From the sequence record MW749001.1: a stretch of DNA of 64,000 nucleotides, one strand, 5' to 3'. Made by a program: the position numbers and the translations under genes. Of the stretch, positions 8,225 to 33,944 are shown piece by piece. Below the pieces are notes generated by a model, which was not told the origin of the DNA, did not search any database, and worked only from the letters and a program-made list of their open reading frames with translations. Source of the stretch: Escherichia phage vB_EcoM_Kelasse. The first letter of the stretch is position 1; the number at the start of each line of letters is the position of its first letter.

Positions 8225-8614
8225 TTAATCCAAAATATTATTAGGCATTGGTTGAACACTCACAAGTTCTTTAAAGAACTCAGTAGAGTCAGGCAATTTA
8301 ACCATTTCCGGAGCATGCTTACTGAATTTATGTTTACATTGACGGCATTTATATTCAAGCTCTGGTTTACGCCAGTTAATCAATTGAACTTGTTCAGTAC
8401 CGCATTCAGGGCAATTAGGAACGTTTTTAGAAGCTCTTTCACGTCGTTCAACCATAGCCATAATAGCATCCCATGCTGGAGGTTTAAAATCTAAATCGTC
8501 GCAGCCGTGAATCTTTCCACGCATTTCCATATCATCTTCCTCACCAGCCATAATAATTTTAATTAAACTGGAATTACTTGAAGCTGCAATGTCTTCTAAT
8601 AAACGCTTTTTCAT
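8225..8614 (-). CDS. hypothetical zinc-ribbon protein (129 aa)
   Basis: CPECG...CRQC four-cysteine motif. Confidence 0.5.
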
Positions 8615-9540
8615 TTCAATACCTCAATAGCATTACGTAAACCATTTGCTTTTGCATTAAGAGCTTTTAACAATTTGGTGTGTTCTGCAATTTGGGCTTC
8701 AACTTCAATCAAACGGGCATTGAGATATTCACGTTCTTCACTCAGATTATCAACCTTTTCTACTTTAGGCTCTTTTACAACTGTCTTATATGTATTAGGG
8801 TTCTTCAGTTTAATTAGAATGCGTGAACTGTATAACATTGAACCATTATCTTCGGTTTCGTCATACATTTCCACTACGTCCATAATTTTTAACATCATGC
8901 GGAGTTTATAAGACAACGAACGAATAGTTTTGTTGTGCTTATTAATTTCTTTAGCTGTCATGGTGCCAAGATTACGTGAGTAATAATAAGGAACCTGGAT
9001 ATTAATTAATACTGATGAACCACCTGGCTTGTGTGTTACTTCATCAGCAATAACCCAGTCCTTAACATGAACTGTATTTGTACGGTCATCGCCCGCGGTA
9101 AATAGTTTGCGAGCATGCTTAAAAAGCATATTCACTTGGTCATTGAATTGACAAGCAAATTTATCAGCAAATTTAGTTTCAGGAATGGTAGAAAACCAAT
9201 CAGCCAAATGAGTCTTTTTAACATCATTAACAATAGTAAATTCAACCAAATCGGTTATAGATGTCTCAGATTTAATGAAGCTCGGCTTCATAAAGTTTTT
9301 AATGTTCTCATGAGCTACAGTAGAAGATAACATACGAGAACGTTTAAACCATTCAAGCAAATTGCCTAACGAATGAGAATAAGCGTTTTGAGTATCTTTA
9401 CAGATATGATTTTCCTGACCAACATATTGAAGGAAATCACGAAGAATATTATTGATTACTGCTCTGTGCCCGATCTGATAATTACGGTGTTTAGTAATAA
9501 GACTGTCAAAATAATCAATATAATGTTTACGAGTTTTCAT
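8611..9540 (-). CDS. hypothetical early protein with C-terminal coiled coil (309 aa)
   Basis: ORF; last ~45 aa form heptad-like amphipathic helix ([42 protein letters not shown]) after a Pro/Lys-rich linker. Confidence 0.55.
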   Translation of the reverse strand: MKTRKHYIDYFDSLITKHRNYQIGHRAVINNILRDFLQYVGQENHICKDTQNAYSHSLGNLLEWFKRSRMLSSTVAHENIKNFMKPSFIKSETSITDLVEFTIVNDVKKTHLADWFSTIPETKFADKFACQFNDQVNMLFKHARKLFTAGDDRTNTVHVKDWVIADEVTHKPGGSSVLINIQVPYYYSRNLGTMTAKEINKHNKTIRSLSYKLRMMLKIMDVVEMYDETEDNGSMLYSSRILIKLKNPNTYKTVVKEPKVEKVDNLSEEREYLNARLIEVEAQIAEHTKLLKALNAKANGLRNAIEVLK

Positions 9541-9592
9541 ATTCTTCTCACTTGGTTAATGGTTTATACTCCGAGCCATCCTTGGCTTTAAA

Positions 9593-10594
9593 TTACTTAA
9601 TTAACTGTAAAGCTTGTTCAAGACGATCAAGACGATTAACGGATTCTTCCCAAATCTTTTTAGCCTGCTCATATTCTTTCTGCGCTTTATTAGAAATTTC
9701 TAGAACTTCTTTATAAGCTTTTTCTAATGCAATAACTTCTGGACGAATTTCTACCGGTTCAGGTGAATCATCAAGACATTCCATTAGTTCCTCAAGGGTA
9801 GTTTCTTCTTTAGGAGTATTCACAATTTCATCACATTTTTGTTGGTAAATTTCTTTACTAGTAGGTGAATAAGCACATTTCACTTCACGAAGACTAATTA
9901 CAATTTTATATCCTTCCCATCCGCATATATTCTTAAAAGGATATGTATGAATATTTTCTACTGTTTCCATACAAAGTAATGCAGTCTCTAACTGACGAGT
10001 TATAGTGCTAGCAATTGAGAAAAATTTATTAATGTTCTTTTGGTTAGTTTCTGGTGTAAAAAATCCATAATTCACAAAAATAGCTACTTTATTTTTATCA
10101 AGCTCATATTCTTTTATGATAATCATATCAGAAGCCAAAGGATGAATTTGACGATAATCGCCATAGCATAATTTAGAAGCTGATTTTAAAATTTGCTTTT
10201 TGAAAAGTCTGAAATTACTAATCCAACGACGAGTAAAAATATTCTCAGGGTCTTCTTTATTATTAAGATGATAAGAATTAACATCACCGAACCAATTATA
10301 TCCTACTACATCTTTAGTTCGTTTAATTTCTTTCCCAAAATTACCAAGAATATCCCGATTAACCAAATATGAAAGAAGACGAGACTCTTTAAAGGTTTTC
10401 TTGATAACATCTTTATCTACACGGCTAGAAATTTTACGAATTTCATGAATAAATTTAGTAGAAGAAACAATACTTGCATCAACACTATTGAGCCATTGAT
10501 TGATAATAGAAAGAACGATATTTTGACCAAACATCGGTATAGCTTTATCATCAATAACGCTATTGAATGATTTGATATATTCGTTACGAGTCAT
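9593..10594 (-). CDS. hypothetical early protein with C-terminal coiled coil (about 333 aa)
   Basis: ORF track frame 9593..10645; first ATG lies inside the promoter-like element, so start placed at MTRNEYIKSF; C-terminal helical tail. Confidence 0.55.
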   Translation of the reverse strand: MTRNEYIKSFNSVIDDKAIPMFGQNIVLSIINQWLNSVDASIVSSTKFIHEIRKISSRVDKDVIKKTFKESRLLSYLVNRDILGNFGKEIKRTKDVVGYNWFGDVNSYHLNNKEDPENIFTRRWISNFRLFKKQILKSASKLCYGDYRQIHPLASDMIIIKEYELDKNKVAIFVNYGFFTPETNQKNINKFFSIASTITRQLETALLCMETVENIHTYPFKNICGWEGYKIVISLREVKCAYSPTSKEIYQQKCDEIVNTPKEETTLEELMECLDDSPEPVEIRPEVIALEKAYKEVLEISNKAQKEYEQAKKIWEESVNRLDRLEQALQLIK

Positions 10595-11680: not shown

Positions 11681-12589
11681 TTAAGATTTAAGTAAATCGA
11701 CAATTTTAATTAACTTTTCACGCTCAGATTTAGCTTTACTACTCAATCCAGATAGTCTGAAAATTTCATCGTCATAATGTTGAATAGAAATATTCAGCTC
11801 TTCAATTTGCTTATTAAAATAATCAATTTGTTCAGAATGTTTTTCGTTACTACGAACTGGTACAGGTTTTGTAGGCAATTTAGTTAAACTGGATTCATCC
11901 GGGCGATAAATTAAAATGCAATTTGAACCAATCGGGCATTTAGCACCAGATGAATATTCTAACGTTCCAGCTTCTTTTAAAACTTCAAAAGCTAAACAGA
12001 GATGATGCCCCATATTAACATAATCTGTAGAGCGAGCTCTGACGTAATAATCATCGCCGCGAATACTAAATTTAAAGCATTTAAGGTCTTCTGTATTATT
12101 GGTCTTAAAAATCATTTGTTTATCTAGACCTTTAGCTAATCGAGCGCCTAATGCTAATAATCGTCGTTGATTTTCCCACAAATCTGCGATCATTTGGTCA
12201 AATGATAATTTCGGCATTAGTCGACCGTAAAGATCATAGCCTTTATTATAATTGCGAAGAATTTCACTTGCATTAATACGAGACAATGCTCCAATTTTAT
12301 TAAGGGCTTTCATAATGCGATTAGATAAACCCATTCCAGACCCGTTTGTTCGCTGTAAATGTTTTTCTAATCCAAATCCAATATCAACTTTAAACTTATC
12401 TAAAATTTCTGCATGAACATCTCTGTCAATAACATTCAAATCCAAAGTTGGGTTAAATCTATGAAAAAATTTATCTGGCTCTCCACGACGAAGTACAGTC
12501 CATTCATTCAATTTTTTATTAACTAAAGATTTAATTACTGCATTGACATTATTAATTACTACTGACATATTTTCCTCACTCAATTTCAA
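11681..12589 (-). CDS. hypothetical early protein with C-terminal coiled coil (302 aa)
   Basis: ORF; TKPVPV linker followed by helical tail. Confidence 0.55.
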   Translation of the reverse strand: MKLSEENMSVVINNVNAVIKSLVNKKLNEWTVLRRGEPDKFFHRFNPTLDLNVIDRDVHAEILDKFKVDIGFGLEKHLQRTNGSGMGLSNRIMKALNKIGALSRINASEILRNYNKGYDLYGRLMPKLSFDQMIADLWENQRRLLALGARLAKGLDKQMIFKTNNTEDLKCFKFSIRGDDYYVRARSTDYVNMGHHLCLAFEVLKEAGTLEYSSGAKCPIGSNCILIYRPDESSLTKLPTKPVPVRSNEKHSEQIDYFNKQIEELNISIQHYDDEIFRLSGLSSKAKSEREKLIKIVDLLKS

Positions 12590-12983
12590 TTTTACTAAAT
12601 ATACAGAATATGATGGAAAAGACTATATAAGCACCGCATACAGATTGAACTAATACCATTCCAAAGAACCAAACAATATTATCAAACAATGTCTGTTTTA
12701 CGTCGAAAGGACGTAAACTTACAGTAATATTATCGCCTTTTTCTATTGATGAATACATCTCTGGGGAAATATATTCGCTAAATCTATAACCGTCTTTGAG
12801 TTCATATACGGCAATAAACGATAAACTAGACCCCTTTCCTTGAGTTCCTGTAAGGGTATTAACTACAGTAACATCATAATCTTTATAATGCATATAATCA
12901 TTAATTGCGTAATAACCATATGCAATTACTATACATAAACAACATATCAATAAATTCAATCTTTTAATTATCAACTGTTTCAT
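12576..12983 (-). CDS. membrane protein (135 aa)
   Basis: Hydrophobic segments at N- and C-termini (LLICCLCIVIAYGYYAI; IVWFFGMVLVQSVCGAYIVFSIIFCIF). Confidence 0.5.
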   Translation of the reverse strand: MKQLIIKRLNLLICCLCIVIAYGYYAINDYMHYKDYDVTVVNTLTGTQGKGSSLSFIAVYELKDGYRFSEYISPEMYSSIEKGDNITVSLRPFDVKQTLFDNIVWFFGMVLVQSVCGAYIVFSIIFCIFSKIEIE

Positions 12984-13040: not shown

Positions 13041-13566
13041 ATGCGAGTACCGTCTTTAACCGTTCTTCAAACTTCCGAAGAGTATTCTGGCGTTCAGCTC
13101 TTTGCTTTTTGTAAGTTTCAATACGCTCTGAAATGAGAGTGTATCGTTCATTTACTGATTCTTTCATAAAATCAGGAATTTCACGAGAAGCTTTAATCTC
13201 GTCAAATTTATCAATAACAGCTTGCTCTTCAGCAATTAAGTTATCATACATCAAAATATCTTTCTTGATGAACTCAATATCTTCTTGAGTTACACGAGAT
13301 AATTTAGATGCTTTATCCTTTTTGTACTGTTCGTTAGTATCACGAGACCAGTGTAATGTACGATTTTTATTCGTATTTTTGTAAATTTCTACAATACCAA
13401 TCTCATCGATAATAACGATCCAATTCCAACGAGATTTGTAAATTTGTCCTCCATCAACCGTGATTTCACCTCCAATTGAGATGTCATTAAAGAACTTGCT
13501 TTGAGCTTCAGATTTAAATTTACCATCATTGTAGTTTACCAAGTTGAAAATATCTTTAGCATTCAT
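13039..13566 (-). CDS. hypothetical helical/charged protein (about 175 aa)
   Basis: ORF track frame 13039..13626; start placed at internal Met preceded by GGAGG, because the 5' extension coincides with a promoter-like element. Confidence 0.5.
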   Translation of the reverse strand: MNAKDIFNLVNYNDGKFKSEAQSKFFNDISIGGEITVDGGQIYKSRWNWIVIIDEIGIVEIYKNTNKNRTLHWSRDTNEQYKKDKASKLSRVTQEDIEFIKKDILMYDNLIAEEQAVIDKFDEIKASREIPDFMKESVNERYTLISERIETYKKQRAERQNTLRKFEERLKTVLA

Positions 13567-13626: not shown

Positions 13627-13941
13627 CTAAAAGAAACTTCTTTCACAATTTTTTCCACTGAACCACGCGCTCACTGCTTTCTTAGTCTCAGGAGCAGTGT
13701 TATCCATAAACCATTCAAAGGCAGCCTTTTTATGATTCTGGAGGGCTTCTCGGGCTTTAATCTGCTCACGGTCTATTAACACTAACATATGAGCCTTTCT
13801 TGTCACCAAGGGCTTCTTATGATTTTTTGAATACTCCCAATCATTTGTCCATCGCATCGTTGTTGCGAACTGAAATACTGCTTCTTTAATTTTAGTTTCA
13901 TAAATTTCACGAGCCTTTGAGTATAACATCATTACCTCCAT
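13627..13941 (-). CDS. hypothetical early protein (104 aa)
   Basis: ORF. Confidence 0.45.
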   Translation of the reverse strand: MEVMMLYSKAREIYETKIKEAVFQFATTMRWTNDWEYSKNHKKPLVTRKAHMLVLIDREQIKAREALQNHKKAAFEWFMDNTAPETKKAVSAWFSGKNCERSFF

Positions 13942-14030: not shown

Positions 14031-14999
14031 TTATTTCAGAAGAGTAACCTCAGCGATTTCTTCCCAACCGTTTTTGTCGGTCATAATAAAGTCAGCAAGA
14101 TAAAGCGCAGTACGCAGTGAAACATTGCGTAAACGATTAACATTGACTTTCATCCATGATAATGCTTTATAAGTTTCTTCATCAGAAAGACCGCGCTTTT
14201 GCATCATGTCAGTTGAAAGAATAACATCTTCAACCCTAACCATAATTTCTTCATTAGTGTGAACACCCAAATCCAAATAAACTGAGCGGGACACTAATGC
14301 TTGTAAATGTGGAGCAAGTTTAGTACCACGATCTAATTCGCGGTCAATGTCAACGTTTGTGATAAAAACAATCGTTCCTTTAAATTCAAACTCACGCTCA
14401 ATGCCTTTTTCTTCTAAGTAAGAAGATGCGGTGCTCCAGCAGACTTTACGGGTCTCTCCGGTGTCCAGAGCAGCTTTCAGAAGATTAAGAATGTCCATAT
14501 CAGAGAAAACATCCACATCATCAATCAAAAGGACAGAATTCTCTTCACGATTATTCCAAAGCTGCTCATAAAGACCAATACCAGAGATTTTACCATTAAT
14601 GCTTTTATACTCAATGTATCCAATATCATTTGCTTTATTTAAAGCTTTATCTAAAGAATACGTTTTACCAATACCTGCTGCTCCCGAGATAATTAATGAA
14701 CGAATGTTTCCGTTAATAATACCATTCGTCATCATTCCCATAACATTAAATCTTTTATTAATGCGGGTTTTCATATCTTCATACGATTCTTTAACTTCTT
14801 CAACTTTTACACCATCATATGAAATGTCTGATTTGTAAACCCAAACACCGCGACGCTTACCGTCAATTTCAACAAAAACTTTACCATCTCCTTGTGCATC
14901 TACCGGAGCATTATCTGGGAACCATTCACCTAAGAGCTCAAAAGTTCCAGAGATTTCTTTGCCAAAGTAGATACCCTTATTGATAGTTACAGTTTTCAT
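14031..14999 (-). CDS. P-loop ATPase (AAA-like)
   Basis: Walker A GAAGIGKT and Walker B-like VLLIDDVD in a 322-aa ORF. Confidence 0.7.
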   Translation of the reverse strand: MKTVTINKGIYFGKEISGTFELLGEWFPDNAPVDAQGDGKVFVEIDGKRRGVWVYKSDISYDGVKVEEVKESYEDMKTRINKRFNVMGMMTNGIINGNIRSLIISGAAGIGKTYSLDKALNKANDIGYIEYKSINGKISGIGLYEQLWNNREENSVLLIDDVDVFSDMDILNLLKAALDTGETRKVCWSTASSYLEEKGIEREFEFKGTIVFITNVDIDRELDRGTKLAPHLQALVSRSVYLDLGVHTNEEIMVRVEDVILSTDMMQKRGLSDEETYKALSWMKVNVNRLRNVSLRTALYLADFIMTDKNGWEEIAEVTLLK

Positions 15000-15056
15000 T
15001 TTATTCTCCTTTGATTTGATAGGACTACTATAACATAATCCTATCAGTTTGTATAC

Positions 15057-15257
15057 TTATTTTGACATTTCTTCGATGTCACGACGATACCCGTCACGAA
15101 CTTCACGAAGAGCTTCAAGGCCACACATAGGCTCGATACCAGTAATGTGAACTTGATTAATCTGATACTCTACATCTTCTAACTGAGCGAAAACATAACG
15201 ACGTTCAGCTGCACAACCAGATTTAGCTTTACCGAAACGTTTATTCAAAGTAGTCAT
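15057..15257 (-). CDS. hypothetical early protein (66 aa)
   Basis: ORF downstream of promoter-like element. Confidence 0.4.
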   Translation of the reverse strand: MTTLNKRFGKAKSGCAAERRYVFAQLEDVEYQINQVHITGIEPMCGLEALREVRDGYRRDIEEMSK

Positions 15258-15289
15258 TTTGTATCTCCAATTTACTCATTTGTTTTGAT

Positions 15290-15328
15290 AGTTGTATAGT
15301 ATACCATAAAGCTTTATGCTTGTAAACA
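15290..15328 (-). promoter_or_regulatory. T4-type early promoter (cassette with upstream stem-loop)
   Basis: Minus-strand GTTTACA ... TATACTATAC; immediately downstream of the terminator hairpin at 15350..15376. Confidence 0.55.
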
Positions 15329-15349
15329 ACTTTGTGAAAAATTTTTGAA

Positions 15350-15376
15350 ATAAAAAAGGGAGCCCGAAGGCCCCCT
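15350..15376 (-). terminator. intrinsic terminator (UUCG tetraloop)
   Basis: Minus-strand GGGGGCCUUCGGGCUCCC followed by UUUUUU. Confidence 0.65.
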
Positions 15377-15377
15377 A

Positions 15378-16391
15378 TCATTTATAATAACTTCGGTGGT
15401 TTTCAAGATAAACCTGTTCGAGGAAATTATTCCAAAAGCTCATATCTACTGTTTTAGGCATACCATTCTTAGAAGCGTCAGTAGATGCTGCTTCTACTTG
15501 ATCGACCACATCTTCCAAAAACTCTTGAACTGTTTTAAATGGATGTTTACCCAACTTCACGTCGAGAATAAATGGAGCATCTTGGAGTGGATAAACCAAG
15601 TCACCAGTTTTGTAAATTTCCAATAGTTGAAGTCCACCACGACAAGCATGACTCAGAGCTTTCCAGTCAATACCTTCATTGGCTTCGGCCTTACGAGCAC
15701 GTTCACCATATTCAGCATCTAATTTGTTCAGTGACTGCTTAAGCTCAATAAGAGAAAGCGTTGTCTGATATTTACGACCCAATACAGTATAGAACGTTTG
15801 TGGACCTGTTTTCTCATGATTATGGAACACCCATTCACAGAATTCGTTTTCTGGAAGACGATGCTTAATATCTTCAACTTTAGTGCGACGCTGCTTAATA
15901 GAACCATCTTCTTGGTAATCAACCCATTGCTCGGGGATTTGATTAACTACTTTTAATACATCGCGTAATGCAGCCAAACGAGAACCCTTGACACCGTATT
16001 TAGAAGCTTGCTTGCGGACATATCCTAAATAGGATTTCATGTTAGTCGTATAAAAACGAGAACGGTTGTCTTGAATAAACTTCCACACGTCAGGCAAATC
16101 AGATTTAACCACTAGTTCAGGTGGAGTGTGAAGCATATCCAATGCTACAGTTTCACCATCTGCTGCTAATTTAAAGAAATATTTAAGACTGTATAGTTCA
16201 TGGTCAATATCATCTTTAGTGTTTTTAGATGATGTGTTGTTAGTGTTTTTACTCATGTGCTCTTTGACATTTCCGATAAGAATATCACGAGCAGGAGGAA
16301 CAAAAATTTCTTTAAAATCTACATCAGATTCTGGGGTAGAAGTTCCATAAAGATGACTACCAAAATAGCTTTTCATTACTGTTTTCATCAT
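15378..16391 (-). CDS. Pol-beta-superfamily nucleotidyltransferase-fold protein
   Basis: N-terminal GS-x10-DVD motif (FGSHLYGTSTPESDVDF) plus downstream DIDHE acidic residue; 337 aa. Confidence 0.65.
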   Translation of the reverse strand: MMKTVMKSYFGSHLYGTSTPESDVDFKEIFVPPARDILIGNVKEHMSKNTNNTSSKNTKDDIDHELYSLKYFFKLAADGETVALDMLHTPPELVVKSDLPDVWKFIQDNRSRFYTTNMKSYLGYVRKQASKYGVKGSRLAALRDVLKVVNQIPEQWVDYQEDGSIKQRRTKVEDIKHRLPENEFCEWVFHNHEKTGPQTFYTVLGRKYQTTLSLIELKQSLNKLDAEYGERARKAEANEGIDWKALSHACRGGLQLLEIYKTGDLVYPLQDAPFILDVKLGKHPFKTVQEFLEDVVDQVEAASTDASKNGMPKTVDMSFWNNFLEQVYLENHRSYYK

Positions 16392-16849
16392 TCAGCCTTA
16401 TATTCAATAACAGGACATACTTTAGCTTTACGAGCTTTTAAAAATTCAACGATAACCGATTTCTTGGGTTGAATAGGAGGTAAACCTTTATACGCCCTAT
16501 CAATATTTTCTACGTGTAAAGCATAATCCTTTTTCCATTTATAATCTTTATATTTTTCACGCAAATGTGCAGGAATAACAAATGAACCGATAATAAGTAA
16601 AACAACCAAAAGTGCAAGTATAAATGCCGATGGAAGAAGAGTCCATAAACTACCGAAAATAAGCCAACGTTGTAGGCTTTCTGCACAAATAATTGTTAGC
16701 CCTACGAGTATAGCACATCCAAAAATAGAAACGAAAAATGTAGGAATGGCAATAGACCAAAAATATGCGCATAGTGTCTTAGGTCGTTGCCATTCATCGT
16801 TAAACAATTTGAATAATTTATAGTGCCAAGAGTTTTCATTAATAATCAT
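16388..16849 (-). CDS. integral membrane protein (153 aa)
   Basis: Three predicted TM segments; ATGA-coupled to the nucleotidyltransferase ORF. Confidence 0.5.
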   Translation of the reverse strand: MIINENSWHYKLFKLFNDEWQRPKTLCAYFWSIAIPTFFVSIFGCAILVGLTIICAESLQRWLIFGSLWTLLPSAFILALLVVLLIIGSFVIPAHLREKYKDYKWKKDYALHVENIDRAYKGLPPIQPKKSVIVEFLKARKAKVCPVIEYKAE

Positions 16850-16851
16850 AA

Positions 16852-17373
16852 TTATCCTTTCATTGAAGGCGTAACAGTTGTTAAATACTTAATCATAGCT
16901 TCAGCTTCTGATTTTGATAATGAAATTTCTCCATTGTTTTGACGAATAGAAATAAAATCCGGATGACGGTCACCACCAGCTTTTAAAACACACATATAAG
17001 TATCAACTTCGCCTTCAATATTTGAAATGATTGAAGCAGTTCCACATGAATGCGGTTTTTGATAAATCAATACAGCTTTTCTTCCGCCATTTGACTGTTC
17101 ATAAACTTTTAATACATCAAACAAATCAGTTCTTTTATCAATAGCTAAAATGTTATTTTCATCTTCAATGTTAAATCCTTCGGATACTTCATAAAGTGTC
17201 ACCCATAAATCGCCAATATCAATAACAGCGTTCACTTTTCCATGACTTTCAAGAGCATGACAAATTTTCTTGATTTCGTCATAACTCATTTTAATAATAT
17301 CATCTCCTTGAATAAGAAAGATGTCATTTTTAAATTCAACACGAATTAAACCACTTCCACTTGAAATAAACAT
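16852..17373 (-). CDS. hypothetical protein, paralog of adjacent ORF
   Basis: C-terminus SKSEAEAMIKYLTTVTPSM resembles TKDEAIALKTYLDSVIPTM of the neighbouring ORF. Confidence 0.5.
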   Translation of the reverse strand: MFISSGSGLIRVEFKNDIFLIQGDDIIKMSYDEIKKICHALESHGKVNAVIDIGDLWVTLYEVSEGFNIEDENNILAIDKRTDLFDVLKVYEQSNGGRKAVLIYQKPHSCGTASIISNIEGEVDTYMCVLKAGGDRHPDFISIRQNNGEISLSKSEAEAMIKYLTTVTPSMKG

Positions 17374-17379
17374 ATTTCC

Positions 17380-17934
17380 TCACTTTGAAATCATAGTTGG
17401 AATGACAGAATCAAGATAAGTCTTTAGTGCAATAGCTTCGTCTTTGGTAAATGTGACAATATGTGCTCGAGAATCATCAATTTGGCGAACAAGTACGACA
17501 TCGCCATCTTCATAAGAAGTCTTGACATCCAAAGTCGTAGTATAATTTGCAGCTACTGGATTAATAATGCTAGCACCGCGATCTTTAGCCCATTGAAGTT
17601 TAGCCTTTTCGGGTGTTTCGACTGTTTCAGATTCCAAGAATTCTTTCACCTTGGCAACGAATGTTGCCCAATTGTTGATAGAAAGACACATAAATTCAGT
17701 TTCAATATTACCGCCGTAAAGGCCACGATAAAAACGAACTTGGAGGTCGCCTGTAATATTAGTTACACCGGTAACTCCTGAGGGAGCATAAGATAAAATC
17801 GCAGCCAGTTCCATAGGAAGAATAGTAATACTATCGTCTTCCTGCGTCAGAACGTATACATTACCGCGTTTTTCGATAACTAGGTCACCGAACAAATCAG
17901 TTGTTTCAATTACAGCTTTCATATTATTTACCAA
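17380..17934 (-). CDS. hypothetical protein, paralog of adjacent ORF
   Basis: See 16852..17373; tandem duplicate. Confidence 0.5.
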   Translation of the reverse strand: MVNNMKAVIETTDLFGDLVIEKRGNVYVLTQEDDSITILPMELAAILSYAPSGVTGVTNITGDLQVRFYRGLYGGNIETEFMCLSINNWATFVAKVKEFLESETVETPEKAKLQWAKDRGASIINPVAANYTTTLDVKTSYEDGDVVLVRQIDDSRAHIVTFTKDEAIALKTYLDSVIPTMISK

Positions 17935-32929: not shown

Positions 32930-33005
32930 TGGTCGAGGCAGTAGGGATCGAACCTACGACCTAGGACTTAGAAGGTCCTTGCTCTTCCTTCTGAGCTATG
33001 CCCCG
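32930..33005 (-). tRNA. tRNA-Arg (anticodon UCU)
   Basis: Hand-folded cloverleaf: 7-bp acceptor stem, T-arm GGTTCGATCC, anticodon loop CUUCUAA, CCA encoded. Confidence 0.8.
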
Positions 33006-33009
33006 TAAT

Positions 33010-33085
33010 TGGGGTGACCGATGGGAGTCGAACCCATGACTACGAGAATCACAATCTCGAGTTCTACCAACTGAACTACGGCCAC
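33010..33085 (-). tRNA. tRNA-His (anticodon GUG)
   Basis: Cloverleaf with anticodon loop UUGUGAU, T-loop TTCGACT, discriminator C as expected for tRNA-His. Confidence 0.7.
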
Positions 33086-33199
33086 ATTAATACCTACTCC
33101 AACAATCAAGATGTCTTCACACGAAATTAAGAGAAGAGTGATCAGTTCAACCCTTATAATCGCGTCAAGTAGATATTAATGTGACAGTTGTCACAAATT

Positions 33200-33274
33200 T
33201 GGCGGACGTGATAGGATTCGAACCTATAACCAATCGCTTAACAGGCGATCGCTCTGCCATTGAGCTACACATCC
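33200..33274 (-). tRNA. tRNA-Asn (anticodon GUU)
   Basis: Perfect anticodon stem ATCGC/GCGAT with loop CUGUUAA; T-arm ATAGGTTCGAATCCTAT. Confidence 0.75.
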
Positions 33275-33278
33275 AAAT

Positions 33279-33365
33279 TGGTGGGGAGTGATGGAGTCGA
33301 ACCACCCGAGTCGCAATGACAATGAATTTACAGTCCACACCGCTACCTCTACGGGATAACTCCCC
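33279..33365 (-). tRNA. tRNA-Tyr (anticodon GUA), long variable arm
   Basis: 87-nt cloverleaf; loop CUGUAAA; variable arm GTCATTGCGAC resembles E. coli tRNA-Tyr; anticodon stem has two G-U pairs. Confidence 0.6.
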
Positions 33366-33371
33366 TTAATT

Positions 33372-33446
33372 TGGTGGCCCTGGGTGGAATTGAACCACCA
33401 TCTGGCGATTATGAGTCGCTTGCTTGAACCTTCCAGCTACAGGGCC
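33372..33446 (-). tRNA. tRNA with anticodon CAU (Ile2-type or Met)
   Basis: Cloverleaf with loop CUCAUAA; 7-bp acceptor GGCCCTG/CAGGGCC. Confidence 0.7.
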
Positions 33447-33447
33447 T

Positions 33448-33523
33448 TGGTGCTGATTGACGGAATCGAACCGCCGACATCCTCATTACAAGTGAGGTGC
33501 TCTACCTACTGAGCTAAATCAGC
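33448..33523 (-). tRNA. tRNA-Thr (anticodon UGU)
   Basis: Cloverleaf with loop CUUGUAA; T-arm GGCGGTTCGATTCCGTC. Confidence 0.8.
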
Positions 33524-33528
33524 AAAAC

Positions 33529-33618
33529 TGGCGGAGGCGATAGGATTTGAACCTATGAGTCGCCGGAGCGACTGCCGGTTTTCAAGACCGGTGCATTAAA
33601 CCACTCTGCCACGCCTCC
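33529..33618 (-). tRNA. tRNA-Ser (anticodon UGA), long variable arm
   Basis: 90-nt type II cloverleaf; anticodon stem CCGGT/ACCGG, loop CUUGAAA. Confidence 0.8.
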
Positions 33619-33620
33619 AG

Positions 33621-33694
33621 TCTCCATACAAGGATTTGAACCTTGGACCTCCTGATCCCAAATCAGGCGCTCTACCAAACTGAGCTACACGGAG
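33621..33694 (-). tRNA. tRNA-Pro (anticodon UGG), CCA not encoded
   Basis: Loop UUUGGGA; only 2 nt separate its 3' end from tRNA-Ser, as in the T4 Pro-Ser dimeric precursor. Confidence 0.8.
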
Positions 33695-33704
33695 TAAATT
33701 AAAT

Positions 33705-33778
<74 letters not shown>

Positions 33779-33783
33779 AAATT

Positions 33784-33870
33784 TGGTGCGAGAAGTGGGA
33801 CTCGAACCCACAAGGAAATCATTCCGCAGCATTTTAAGTGCTGTGCCTTTACCAATTTGACCATTCTCGC
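33784..33870 (-). tRNA. tRNA-Leu (anticodon UAA), long variable arm
   Basis: 87 nt; loop CUUAAAA; GCGAGAAUGGUCAAAUUGGUAAAGG... matches T4 tRNA-Leu as I recall it. Confidence 0.85.
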
Positions 33871-33871
33871 G

Positions 33872-33944
33872 CTGGGAATAAAGGACTCGAACCTTTGCAT
33901 CTAGCAGTCAAAGTGCTATGCCTTACCAACTTGGCTAATTCCCA
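33872..33944 (-). tRNA. tRNA-Gln (anticodon UUG), CCA not encoded
   Basis: Perfect 7-bp acceptor stem TGGGAAT/ATTCCCA; loop CUUUGAC; abuts tRNA-Leu as in the T4 Gln-Leu precursor. Confidence 0.8.

Follow-up and report, generated by a model that had tools for sequence, protein, structure and literature searches.

A predicted RlaP-family nucleotidyltransferase, an orphan AAA+ ATPase and a membrane protein at the nrdC.10/nrdC.11 locus of Escherichia phage vB_EcoM_Kelasse: neighbours that are probably independent

In this work we describe three neighbouring genes on a 64,000-nucleotide stretch of DNA from Escherichia phage vB_EcoM_Kelasse (sequence record MW749001.1), which as a whole we call the window. 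They encode a P-loop ATPase, a nucleotidyltransferase (NTase) and a membrane protein, and the listing of open reading frames (ORFs) places all three on the minus strand (Table 1). An earlier note, made from the sequence, had presented them as a cluster; the coordinates and motifs that it gave for the three ORFs agree with the listing and with a script check. Neither the ORFs nor their motifs are products of chance, since homologues of the ATPase, the NTase and the membrane protein are found in 1312, 1564 and 918 phage records, respectively. A 3.8-kb stretch has 97-98% DNA identity to many Tequatrovirus genomes, and the window is that of a Tequatrovirus. The counterparts of the ATPase and NTase genes in the T4 reference record are nrdC.10 and nrdC.11, names that we use from here on. 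Conservation at these two positions, which the note had proposed to check, is confirmed by the T4 gene map and by protein identities of 99% (314/316 residues) for NrdC.10 and 97% (325/336 residues) for NrdC.11. The note had also considered that the genes might be T4 core ORFs with an established and unrelated function. They are indeed T4 ORFs, but not ones with an established function: the literature on nrdC.10 and nrdC.11 consists of genome-comparison and genome-reduction papers, among which we found no functional study.

The genes had been described as adjacent, which is accurate for one pair and not for the other. The stop codon of the membrane-protein gene overlaps the start codon of nrdC.11 (ATGA), an arrangement that is common in T4-like genomes and is no evidence of a functional link. 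Between nrdC.11 and nrdC.10, on the other hand, lie 378 bp that contain an intrinsic terminator, a promoter-like site and a conserved ORF of 66 amino acids (aa). The terminator is kept in T4, and the annotation of phage KAW1E185 also lists it as such. The promoter-like site is the top-scoring one between positions 13500 and 18200, with 10 of 12 matches and an extended -10 element; it too is kept in T4, where it stands directly ahead of nrdC.10. The 66-aa ORF is not in T4 and is present in a single one of the 80 viral NTase loci that we sampled. As T4 has nrdC.10 directly behind the same promoter, we regard this ORF as an insertion in the present lineage. From the promoter type and from what is known of T4, we infer that the genes are expressed early.

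Table 1. Genes and regulatory features at the nrdC.10/nrdC.11 locus of the window
Feature	Position	Strand	Basis
nrdC.10 ortholog, AAA+ ATPase, 322 aa	14031..14999	-	ORF listing
66-aa ORF between promoter and nrdC.10	15057..15257	-	phrog_6200, E 1e-35
Sigma-70/T4-early-type promoter-like site, TTTACA-17 nt-TATACT + TG extension	15298..15326	-	Scoring scan
Intrinsic terminator with a GC-rich stem of 8 bp, a loop of 4 nt and a T run	15347..15376 (15376-15357)	-	Directly past the nrdC.11 stop
nrdC.11 ortholog, predicted RlaP-family Pol-beta nucleotidyltransferase, 337 aa	15378..16391	-	PF10127, T4 identity
Membrane protein, 153 aa, predicted 2 (possibly 3) transmembrane helices	16388..16849	-	Hydropathy; phrog_944, phrog_22816

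The second protein had been recognized as an NTase of the Pol-beta fold, and this reading stands. Residues 11-25 are GSHLYGTSTPESDVD, the GS-x10-DVD signature (script check), and the sole Pfam match is RlaP (PF10127, 'RNA repair pathway DNA polymerase beta family'), which spans residues 7-135 and profile positions 23-142 of 249. The match scores 43.9 bits (E 3.2e-11) where the gathering score is 23, so the subfamily, which the earlier note had thought unassignable from the sequence, can be assigned after all. PHROGs labels the protein 'nucleotidyltransferase' and nothing further, and searches of NCBIfam and PADLOC gave no match. A profile search against 1.84 billion cluster representatives returned 1047 proteins at E-values up to 1e-30, of which the best 150 are mostly full-length (about 310-350 aa). 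To describe conservation we aligned 73 relatives that are 33-54% identical to the window protein, all but one of which match PF10127 (72/73). Residues G11, Y15, G16, S22, D23, D25, Y132, H248, R251 and P268 are invariant in this alignment, while S12, D61, D63, D85 and a DWKAxSHAxR block (residues 242-251) are at least 90% conserved.

A profile alignment of the NrdC.11 clade with canonical RlaP (hhalign) covers residues 2-140 with a probability of 94% and an E-value of 1e-7, and places G11-S12, D23, D25 and D63 of NrdC.11 opposite G38-S, D50, D52 and D83 of canonical RlaP. NrdC.11 belongs to the RlaP family and carries the catalytic residues. With its PF10127 matches, its N-terminal alignment and a C-terminal region that has no significant alignment, it is an enzyme of this family whose clade is distinct. 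T4 NrdC.11 has been assigned to 'cluster 5' of a PF10127 similarity network in a preprint of December 2025 (PMC12776372). Structural information adds little here: the AlphaFold2 model of the NTase, built from a 19-sequence alignment of 77-97% identity, has a predicted local distance difference test score (pLDDT) of 58 and leaves the N-terminal domain unmodelled, and sequence and profile searches with the NTase, its alignments and canonical RlaP found nothing relevant in a copy of the PDB without an RlaP structure.

The genomic surroundings of cellular relatives are those of RNA repair. In a scan of 185,579 species genomes we found 80 bacterial or archaeal loci with full-length NrdC.11-like proteins (33-53% identity). 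Genes for RtcB, Hen1 or Ro60/TROVE lie within 4 kb in 14 of them, and a second, canonical RlaP is encoded nearby in 13, mostly immediately downstream with a median gap of 4 bp. A representative canonical RlaP from these tandem loci matches PF10127 from end to end (E 4e-75). For example, a cassette of Nitrosospira sp. (L193; CAADGK010000054.1, 3558-14060) carries on one strand, over nine kb, genes for Ro60/TROVE-vWA, RtcB, RtcA, the NrdC.11-like protein, a canonical RlaP, Hen1, a MoxR-type AAA+ protein (AAA_5) and DUF2201, a vWA-like metallopeptidase. At the window locus no RNA ligase or RNA-repair gene stands beside nrdC.11; its neighbours are the membrane-protein ORF, two y05I-like paralogs, the 66-aa ORF and the AAA+ gene. 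Divergent phage NTase loci likewise hold rI, NadR, NAMPT, SPFH and methyltransferase genes and no ligase. In T4, the genes for the RNA ligases and Pnkp are located elsewhere in the genome.

What would such an enzyme do for the phage? Two Pseudomonas RlaPs (PfRlaP and PaRlaP) extend RNA at its 3'-OH by 1-2 nucleoside monophosphates (NMPs), modify neither DNA nor protein and prefer Mn2+; given a substrate short of one anticodon-loop nucleotide, they can regenerate tRNA that is chargeable (PMC12776372). A survey of jumbo phages arrived at the same prediction for phage RlaPs (PMC7824862). By analogy with the two characterized enzymes, NrdC.11 would most likely use the carboxylate triad D23, D25 and D63 with divalent metal ions to add 1-2 NMPs to an RNA 3'-OH. 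It would thereby put back the nucleotides that anticodon nucleases of the host, RloC for example, trim from tRNA, and the phage Pnkp and RNA ligases would then reseal a usable tRNA. RloC is a nucleotide-excising anticodon nuclease that has been proposed to defeat the classical RNA repair of T4, and NrdC.11 may have a role in counter-defence. The gene can be spared, as the T4 block nrdC.11-mobD.3 is deletable (PMC9825161); in a reduced T4 genome from GenBank, nothing is left of nrdC.11 but its final 39 codons.

A different possibility is that NrdC.11 has the RlaP fold and acts on another substrate. It might tail host or phage RNAs or mark them for decay, repair the 3'-CCA of tRNAs, or nucleotidylate proteins or small molecules, with the C-terminal region setting the specificity. 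The C-terminal 200 residues of NrdC.11 have no significant alignment to canonical RlaP, and the clade has invariant residues of its own (Y132, H248, R251, P268); the region that holds the DWKAxSHAxR block is predicted to be specific to the NrdC.11 clade. In bacteria the NrdC.11-like gene also often has a canonical RlaP gene as its tandem partner, and these 13 loci suggest that the two proteins have non-redundant roles. However, the tandem pairs still lie inside RNA-repair cassettes, for which an RNA 3' end is the simplest substrate. Moreover, when the C-terminus alone is compared with canonical RlaP, K244-x3-H248-x2-R251 falls opposite K161-x3-Y165-x2-R168, a shared K-x3-[H/Y]-x2-R motif, albeit in a non-significant alignment (E 0.25). 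There are hints of an insertion of about 85 residues in NrdC.11 relative to canonical RlaP; the significant match grew no longer when residues 141-224, the putative insertion, were taken out of the NTase alignment. We consider another substrate unlikely, and favour the addition of nucleotides to RNA ends.

The first protein, NrdC.10, is the P-loop ATPase that the earlier note took it to be. A script check located its motifs GAAGIGKT (residue 106) and LLIDDVD (residue 157), and the AlphaFold2 model, which has the AAA+ fold, is confident (pLDDT 89.9). In the model, five strands make up an N-terminal beta domain (residues 1-61), and a linker helix, the alpha/beta core of an AAA+ protein and a helical lid follow; it has a 30-residue insert (179-208) ahead of the sensor-1 strand and no collar domain. 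Pfam yields sub-threshold generic matches only (AAA_14, AAA_22, nSTAND3 and AAA_16), and PHROGs files the protein under phrog_1250, of unknown function. Identity is 55-79% across T4-like phages of Enterobacteria, Acinetobacter, Aeromonas and Vibrio, and 30-44% in 80 IMG/VR contigs. Down to 32% identity, the conserved residues include those of Walker A (G106, G109, G111, K112), Walker B (D160, D161) and sensor 1 (N215), the arginine finger R238 in an S-R-S/C box VII, and R291 and R296 of the lid and sensor 2. The catalytic motifs are all invariant, and those of AAA+ proteins stand in canonical order on an alpha/beta core with a helical lid. NrdC.10 is complete as an AAA+ ATPase and probably oligomeric, and its phage family is an orphan. 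We also tried the MoxR subfamily as a home for NrdC.10 and rejected it at the sequence level: AAA_5 matches four of 35 members, below the cut-off, and an hhalign comparison with a genuine MoxR aligns 25 residues at Walker A. No vWA gene lies near the ATPase gene in the window.

Some indication of what NrdC.10 does may come from uncultured T4-like contigs, where the ATPase gene is found within a colinear block, UvsX-UvsY-(x)-ATPase-(371-aa ORF)-UvsW-p173-p162 (phrog_11279-phrog_11758), in which the 371-aa ORF belongs to no family. UvsW is encoded at most 3.5 kb downstream of the ATPase on the same strand in 42 of the 60 loci that are long enough to tell, and the upstream side holds UvsY in 19 and UvsX in 21 of 58 loci. 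Members of the block include the IMG/VR contigs L017, L019, L023, L035, L040, L052, L058, L063, L069 and L077, and the nearest cultured relative of these block-type ATPases is that of Pseudomonas phage vB_Pa-PAC2, at 50% identity. A search of the window for UvsX, UvsY, UvsW, the 371-aa ORF and the other environmental neighbours of the ATPase found no homologue. That distant T4-like contigs carry the gene at a conserved place, with uvsY and uvsW on either side, is a faint suggestion that NrdC.10 takes part in remodelling during recombination or replication.

Instead of being a remodeller in general, NrdC.10 could serve replication as a divergent clamp loader or a RarA-like accessory. At the sequence level, RFC4 is the PDB entry that it matches best (E 0.003), the box VII SRS (SRC in the environmental consensus) falls opposite the SRC of RFC, and some database entries name its relatives clamp loader or RarA; the uvsY and uvsW neighbours in distant phages would fit as well. 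The insert ahead of sensor 1 and the lack of a collar domain in the model point the other way, and we hold this to be quite unlikely. A bolder proposal is that NrdC.10 stands for an AAA+ family that is new, confined to phages and active together with the recombination machinery of UvsX, UvsY and UvsW, or that it is a ribonucleoprotein remodeller cooperating with the RlaP NrdC.11, and this we consider decidedly improbable. If the remodeller option were true, T4-like phages would possess a second tier of RNA repair, combining nucleotide restoration with remodelling, against nucleases like RloC that defeat Pnkp and Rnl1.

The third protein had been called a membrane protein with three transmembrane (TM) helices. 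It is a membrane protein, but with two long hydrophobic stretches, at about residues 26-56 and 62-94, and a basic terminus at each end, it is described better by two helices, the N- and C-terminus both lying inside, than by three, although three are possible. It matches phrog_944 ('membrane protein', in the moron/auxiliary category) and phrog_22816; no Pfam family covers it, and the databases searched give it no informative name. In the 918 phage records with a homologue, the gene usually lies just upstream of nrdC.11. Truncated alleles of 135, 116, 112 and 99 aa are on record, that of T2 among them, and the gene is missing from T4, which has the mobD HNH homing endonuclease at the position occupied here by the membrane-protein gene and a second y05I-like gene. 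We regard the membrane protein as the product of a fast-evolving and often truncated accessory gene that is merely syntenic with nrdC.11; given its rapid divergence, our guess would be a role in host interaction or exclusion. Upstream of it lie two tandem paralogs of the y05I/MobD.1 family (Pfam T4_y05I_N and T4_y05I_C, 'putative transcription factor'; 16852-17373 and 17380-17934, minus strand), where T4 has a single y05I-family copy (mobD.1) and mobD.

Do the three genes belong together, as the earlier grouping implied? We examined co-occurrence in two viral samples, of 80 ATPase contigs and 80 NTase contigs. An NTase gene is found within 10 kb of the ATPase gene in four of the ATPase loci. 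Among the NTase loci, the ATPase gene is present in 36 and lacking in 44, and the membrane-protein gene is present in 42 and lacking in 38. Every NTase locus with the ATPase or the membrane-protein gene comes from a Tevenvirinae-like phage with an NTase identity of at least 52%, while all more distant loci are without both; some close relatives (L089, L091 and L102-104) also lack the ATPase. Where both genes occur on one contig, they can be 40 kb (L135/L006) and 150 kb (L157/L019) apart, and in Vibrio phage D480 the nrdC.10- and nrdC.11-type genes are separated by 68 kb. The two genes also differ in their counts by host genus, with 286 against 149 for Klebsiella and 59 against 121 for Vibrio. 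Their evolutionary rates are unequal too: at an NTase identity of 82%, that of the ATPase is 77-79% and that of the membrane protein 30-33%. Together, the terminator and promoter between the genes, the patchy co-occurrence and the unequal rates indicate lineage-specific synteny of neighbouring but functionally independent accessory genes, and the implied three-gene cluster is not upheld as a module.

A functional module of all three genes, or of the ATPase and the NTase, can nonetheless be imagined. The AAA+ protein might, for instance, remodel a damaged ribonucleoprotein such as a tRNA or ribosome complex and so give RlaP access to the end of the RNA; the MoxR-vWA accessories found in RNA-repair cassettes of bacteria would be the analogy. 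That analogy does not extend far, as MoxR stands beside NrdC.11-like genes at three loci (L193, L174 and L158), which amount to two of the 80 cellular and one of the 80 viral loci, and the NrdC.10 profile aligns with the MoxR of L193 at Walker A only (hhalign). A module is also hard to reconcile with a terminator and promoter that split the genes both here and in T4, with the 76 of 80 ATPase loci that have no NTase within 10 kb, with close relatives such as L089 and L091 among the 44 NTase loci without the ATPase, and with distances of 40-150 kb on a shared contig. We therefore rate it as very improbable.

The earlier suggestion of a cGAS/DncV-like, Cid1-like or minimal NTase in signalling or immunity fares worst, since a cGAS/DncV-like NTase (CD-NTase) or other signalling enzyme that makes second messengers or decoys would have in common with our protein the GS...DxD signature, which is generic to the Pol-beta fold, and a length of about 340 aa, but RlaP is its sole family and that of 72 of its 73 relatives, it has no Pfam match to SMODS/CD-NTase at E-values up to 0.01 and these relatives have no such match, PADLOC gives no match for it, its cellular relatives adjoin RtcB, RtcA, Hen1 and Ro60 instead of effectors of cyclic-oligonucleotide-based antiphage signalling (CBASS), and the characterized RlaPs act on RNA 3' ends and not on pairs of free NTPs (PMC12776372), so that we give this reading hardly any credence. 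A defence or nucleotide-signalling module at the locus, as far as can be judged from the sequence, is not supported.

The explanation that we prefer as a whole is that of independent accessory genes, namely an RlaP-type NTase for RNA ends, an orphan AAA+ ATPase and a syntenic membrane protein, to which we assign a probability of roughly 0.6. The novelty of this result is low, because nrdC.10 and nrdC.11 are both catalogued T4 ORFs and the RlaP assignment is already present in Pfam and in the literature, and it changes little for phage biology. Two points are nevertheless of residual interest. Does T4 use NrdC.11 to undo excision of the RloC type? And what is the role of the widely conserved orphan NrdC.10? 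The tandems of NrdC.11-like and canonical RlaP genes in RtcB/RtcA/Hen1/Ro60 cassettes, and the NrdC.10-like genes between uvsY and uvsW, provide starting points.

Several further observations were made along the way. The annotation of these genes in GenBank deserves some caution: many phage records wrongly call the orthologs of nrdC.10 and nrdC.11 'thioredoxin', apparently by spread from the name of the neighbouring nrdC, and those of mobD.1 and mobD.4 'molybdopterin-guanine dinucleotide biosynthesis protein MobD'. Downstream of nrdC.10 in the window lie an ortholog of nrdC.9 (Pfam DUF7203; 13627-13941, minus strand) and a small membrane ORF at the nrdC.7 position (12576-12983, minus strand). 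On the viral contig L158, a MoxR-like AAA+ ORF (8554-9660) is encoded directly upstream of the NrdC.11-like NTase, with an E-value of 6e-22 to the MoxR of L193. The window also carries 11 clustered tRNA genes (Arg, His, Asn, Tyr, Met/Ile-CAU, Thr, Ser, Pro, Gly, Leu and Gln) at 32930-33944 on the minus strand, and this cluster explains a local GC peak of 0.43. T4 presumably has eight tRNA genes; if so, those for His, Asn and Tyr are additional in this phage.

Finally, the two main proteins can be set against known systems. NrdC.10 is closest to T4 NrdC.10 (NP_049708), listed as an uncharacterized AAA ATPase in PMC1524935, with which it shares 99% identity over 316 aa and the same promoter ahead of the gene; the differences are the last six residues and the 66-aa ORF that is inserted upstream here. 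The small subunits of RFC, and the clamp-loader clade in general, resemble it in a box VII S-R-[SC] after helix 4 and in a similar Walker A context, whereas NrdC.10 has an insert at 179-208 and no collar domain. MoxR-type proteins are further removed: NrdC.10 is just 9-15% identical to NorQ (9qh4) and CbbQ (6l1q), has no AAA_5 match above threshold and no vWA partner nearby.

The Pseudomonas RlaP of rtcB-rlaP-rtcA operons shares with NrdC.11 the PF10127 match, the set of GS, DxD and third Asp, and a homologous N-terminal NTase domain with the helices that follow it, and cellular members of the NrdC.11 clade are also found beside RtcB and RtcA. NrdC.11, in contrast, is about 80 aa longer, forms a separate clade and has no adjoining ligase gene in the phage. 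The closest system of all is T4 NrdC.11 (NP_049709) itself, with 97% identity over 336 aa, the same genomic position and the same downstream terminator, from which the window protein differs by point substitutions only, e.g. D61 here where T4 has N.

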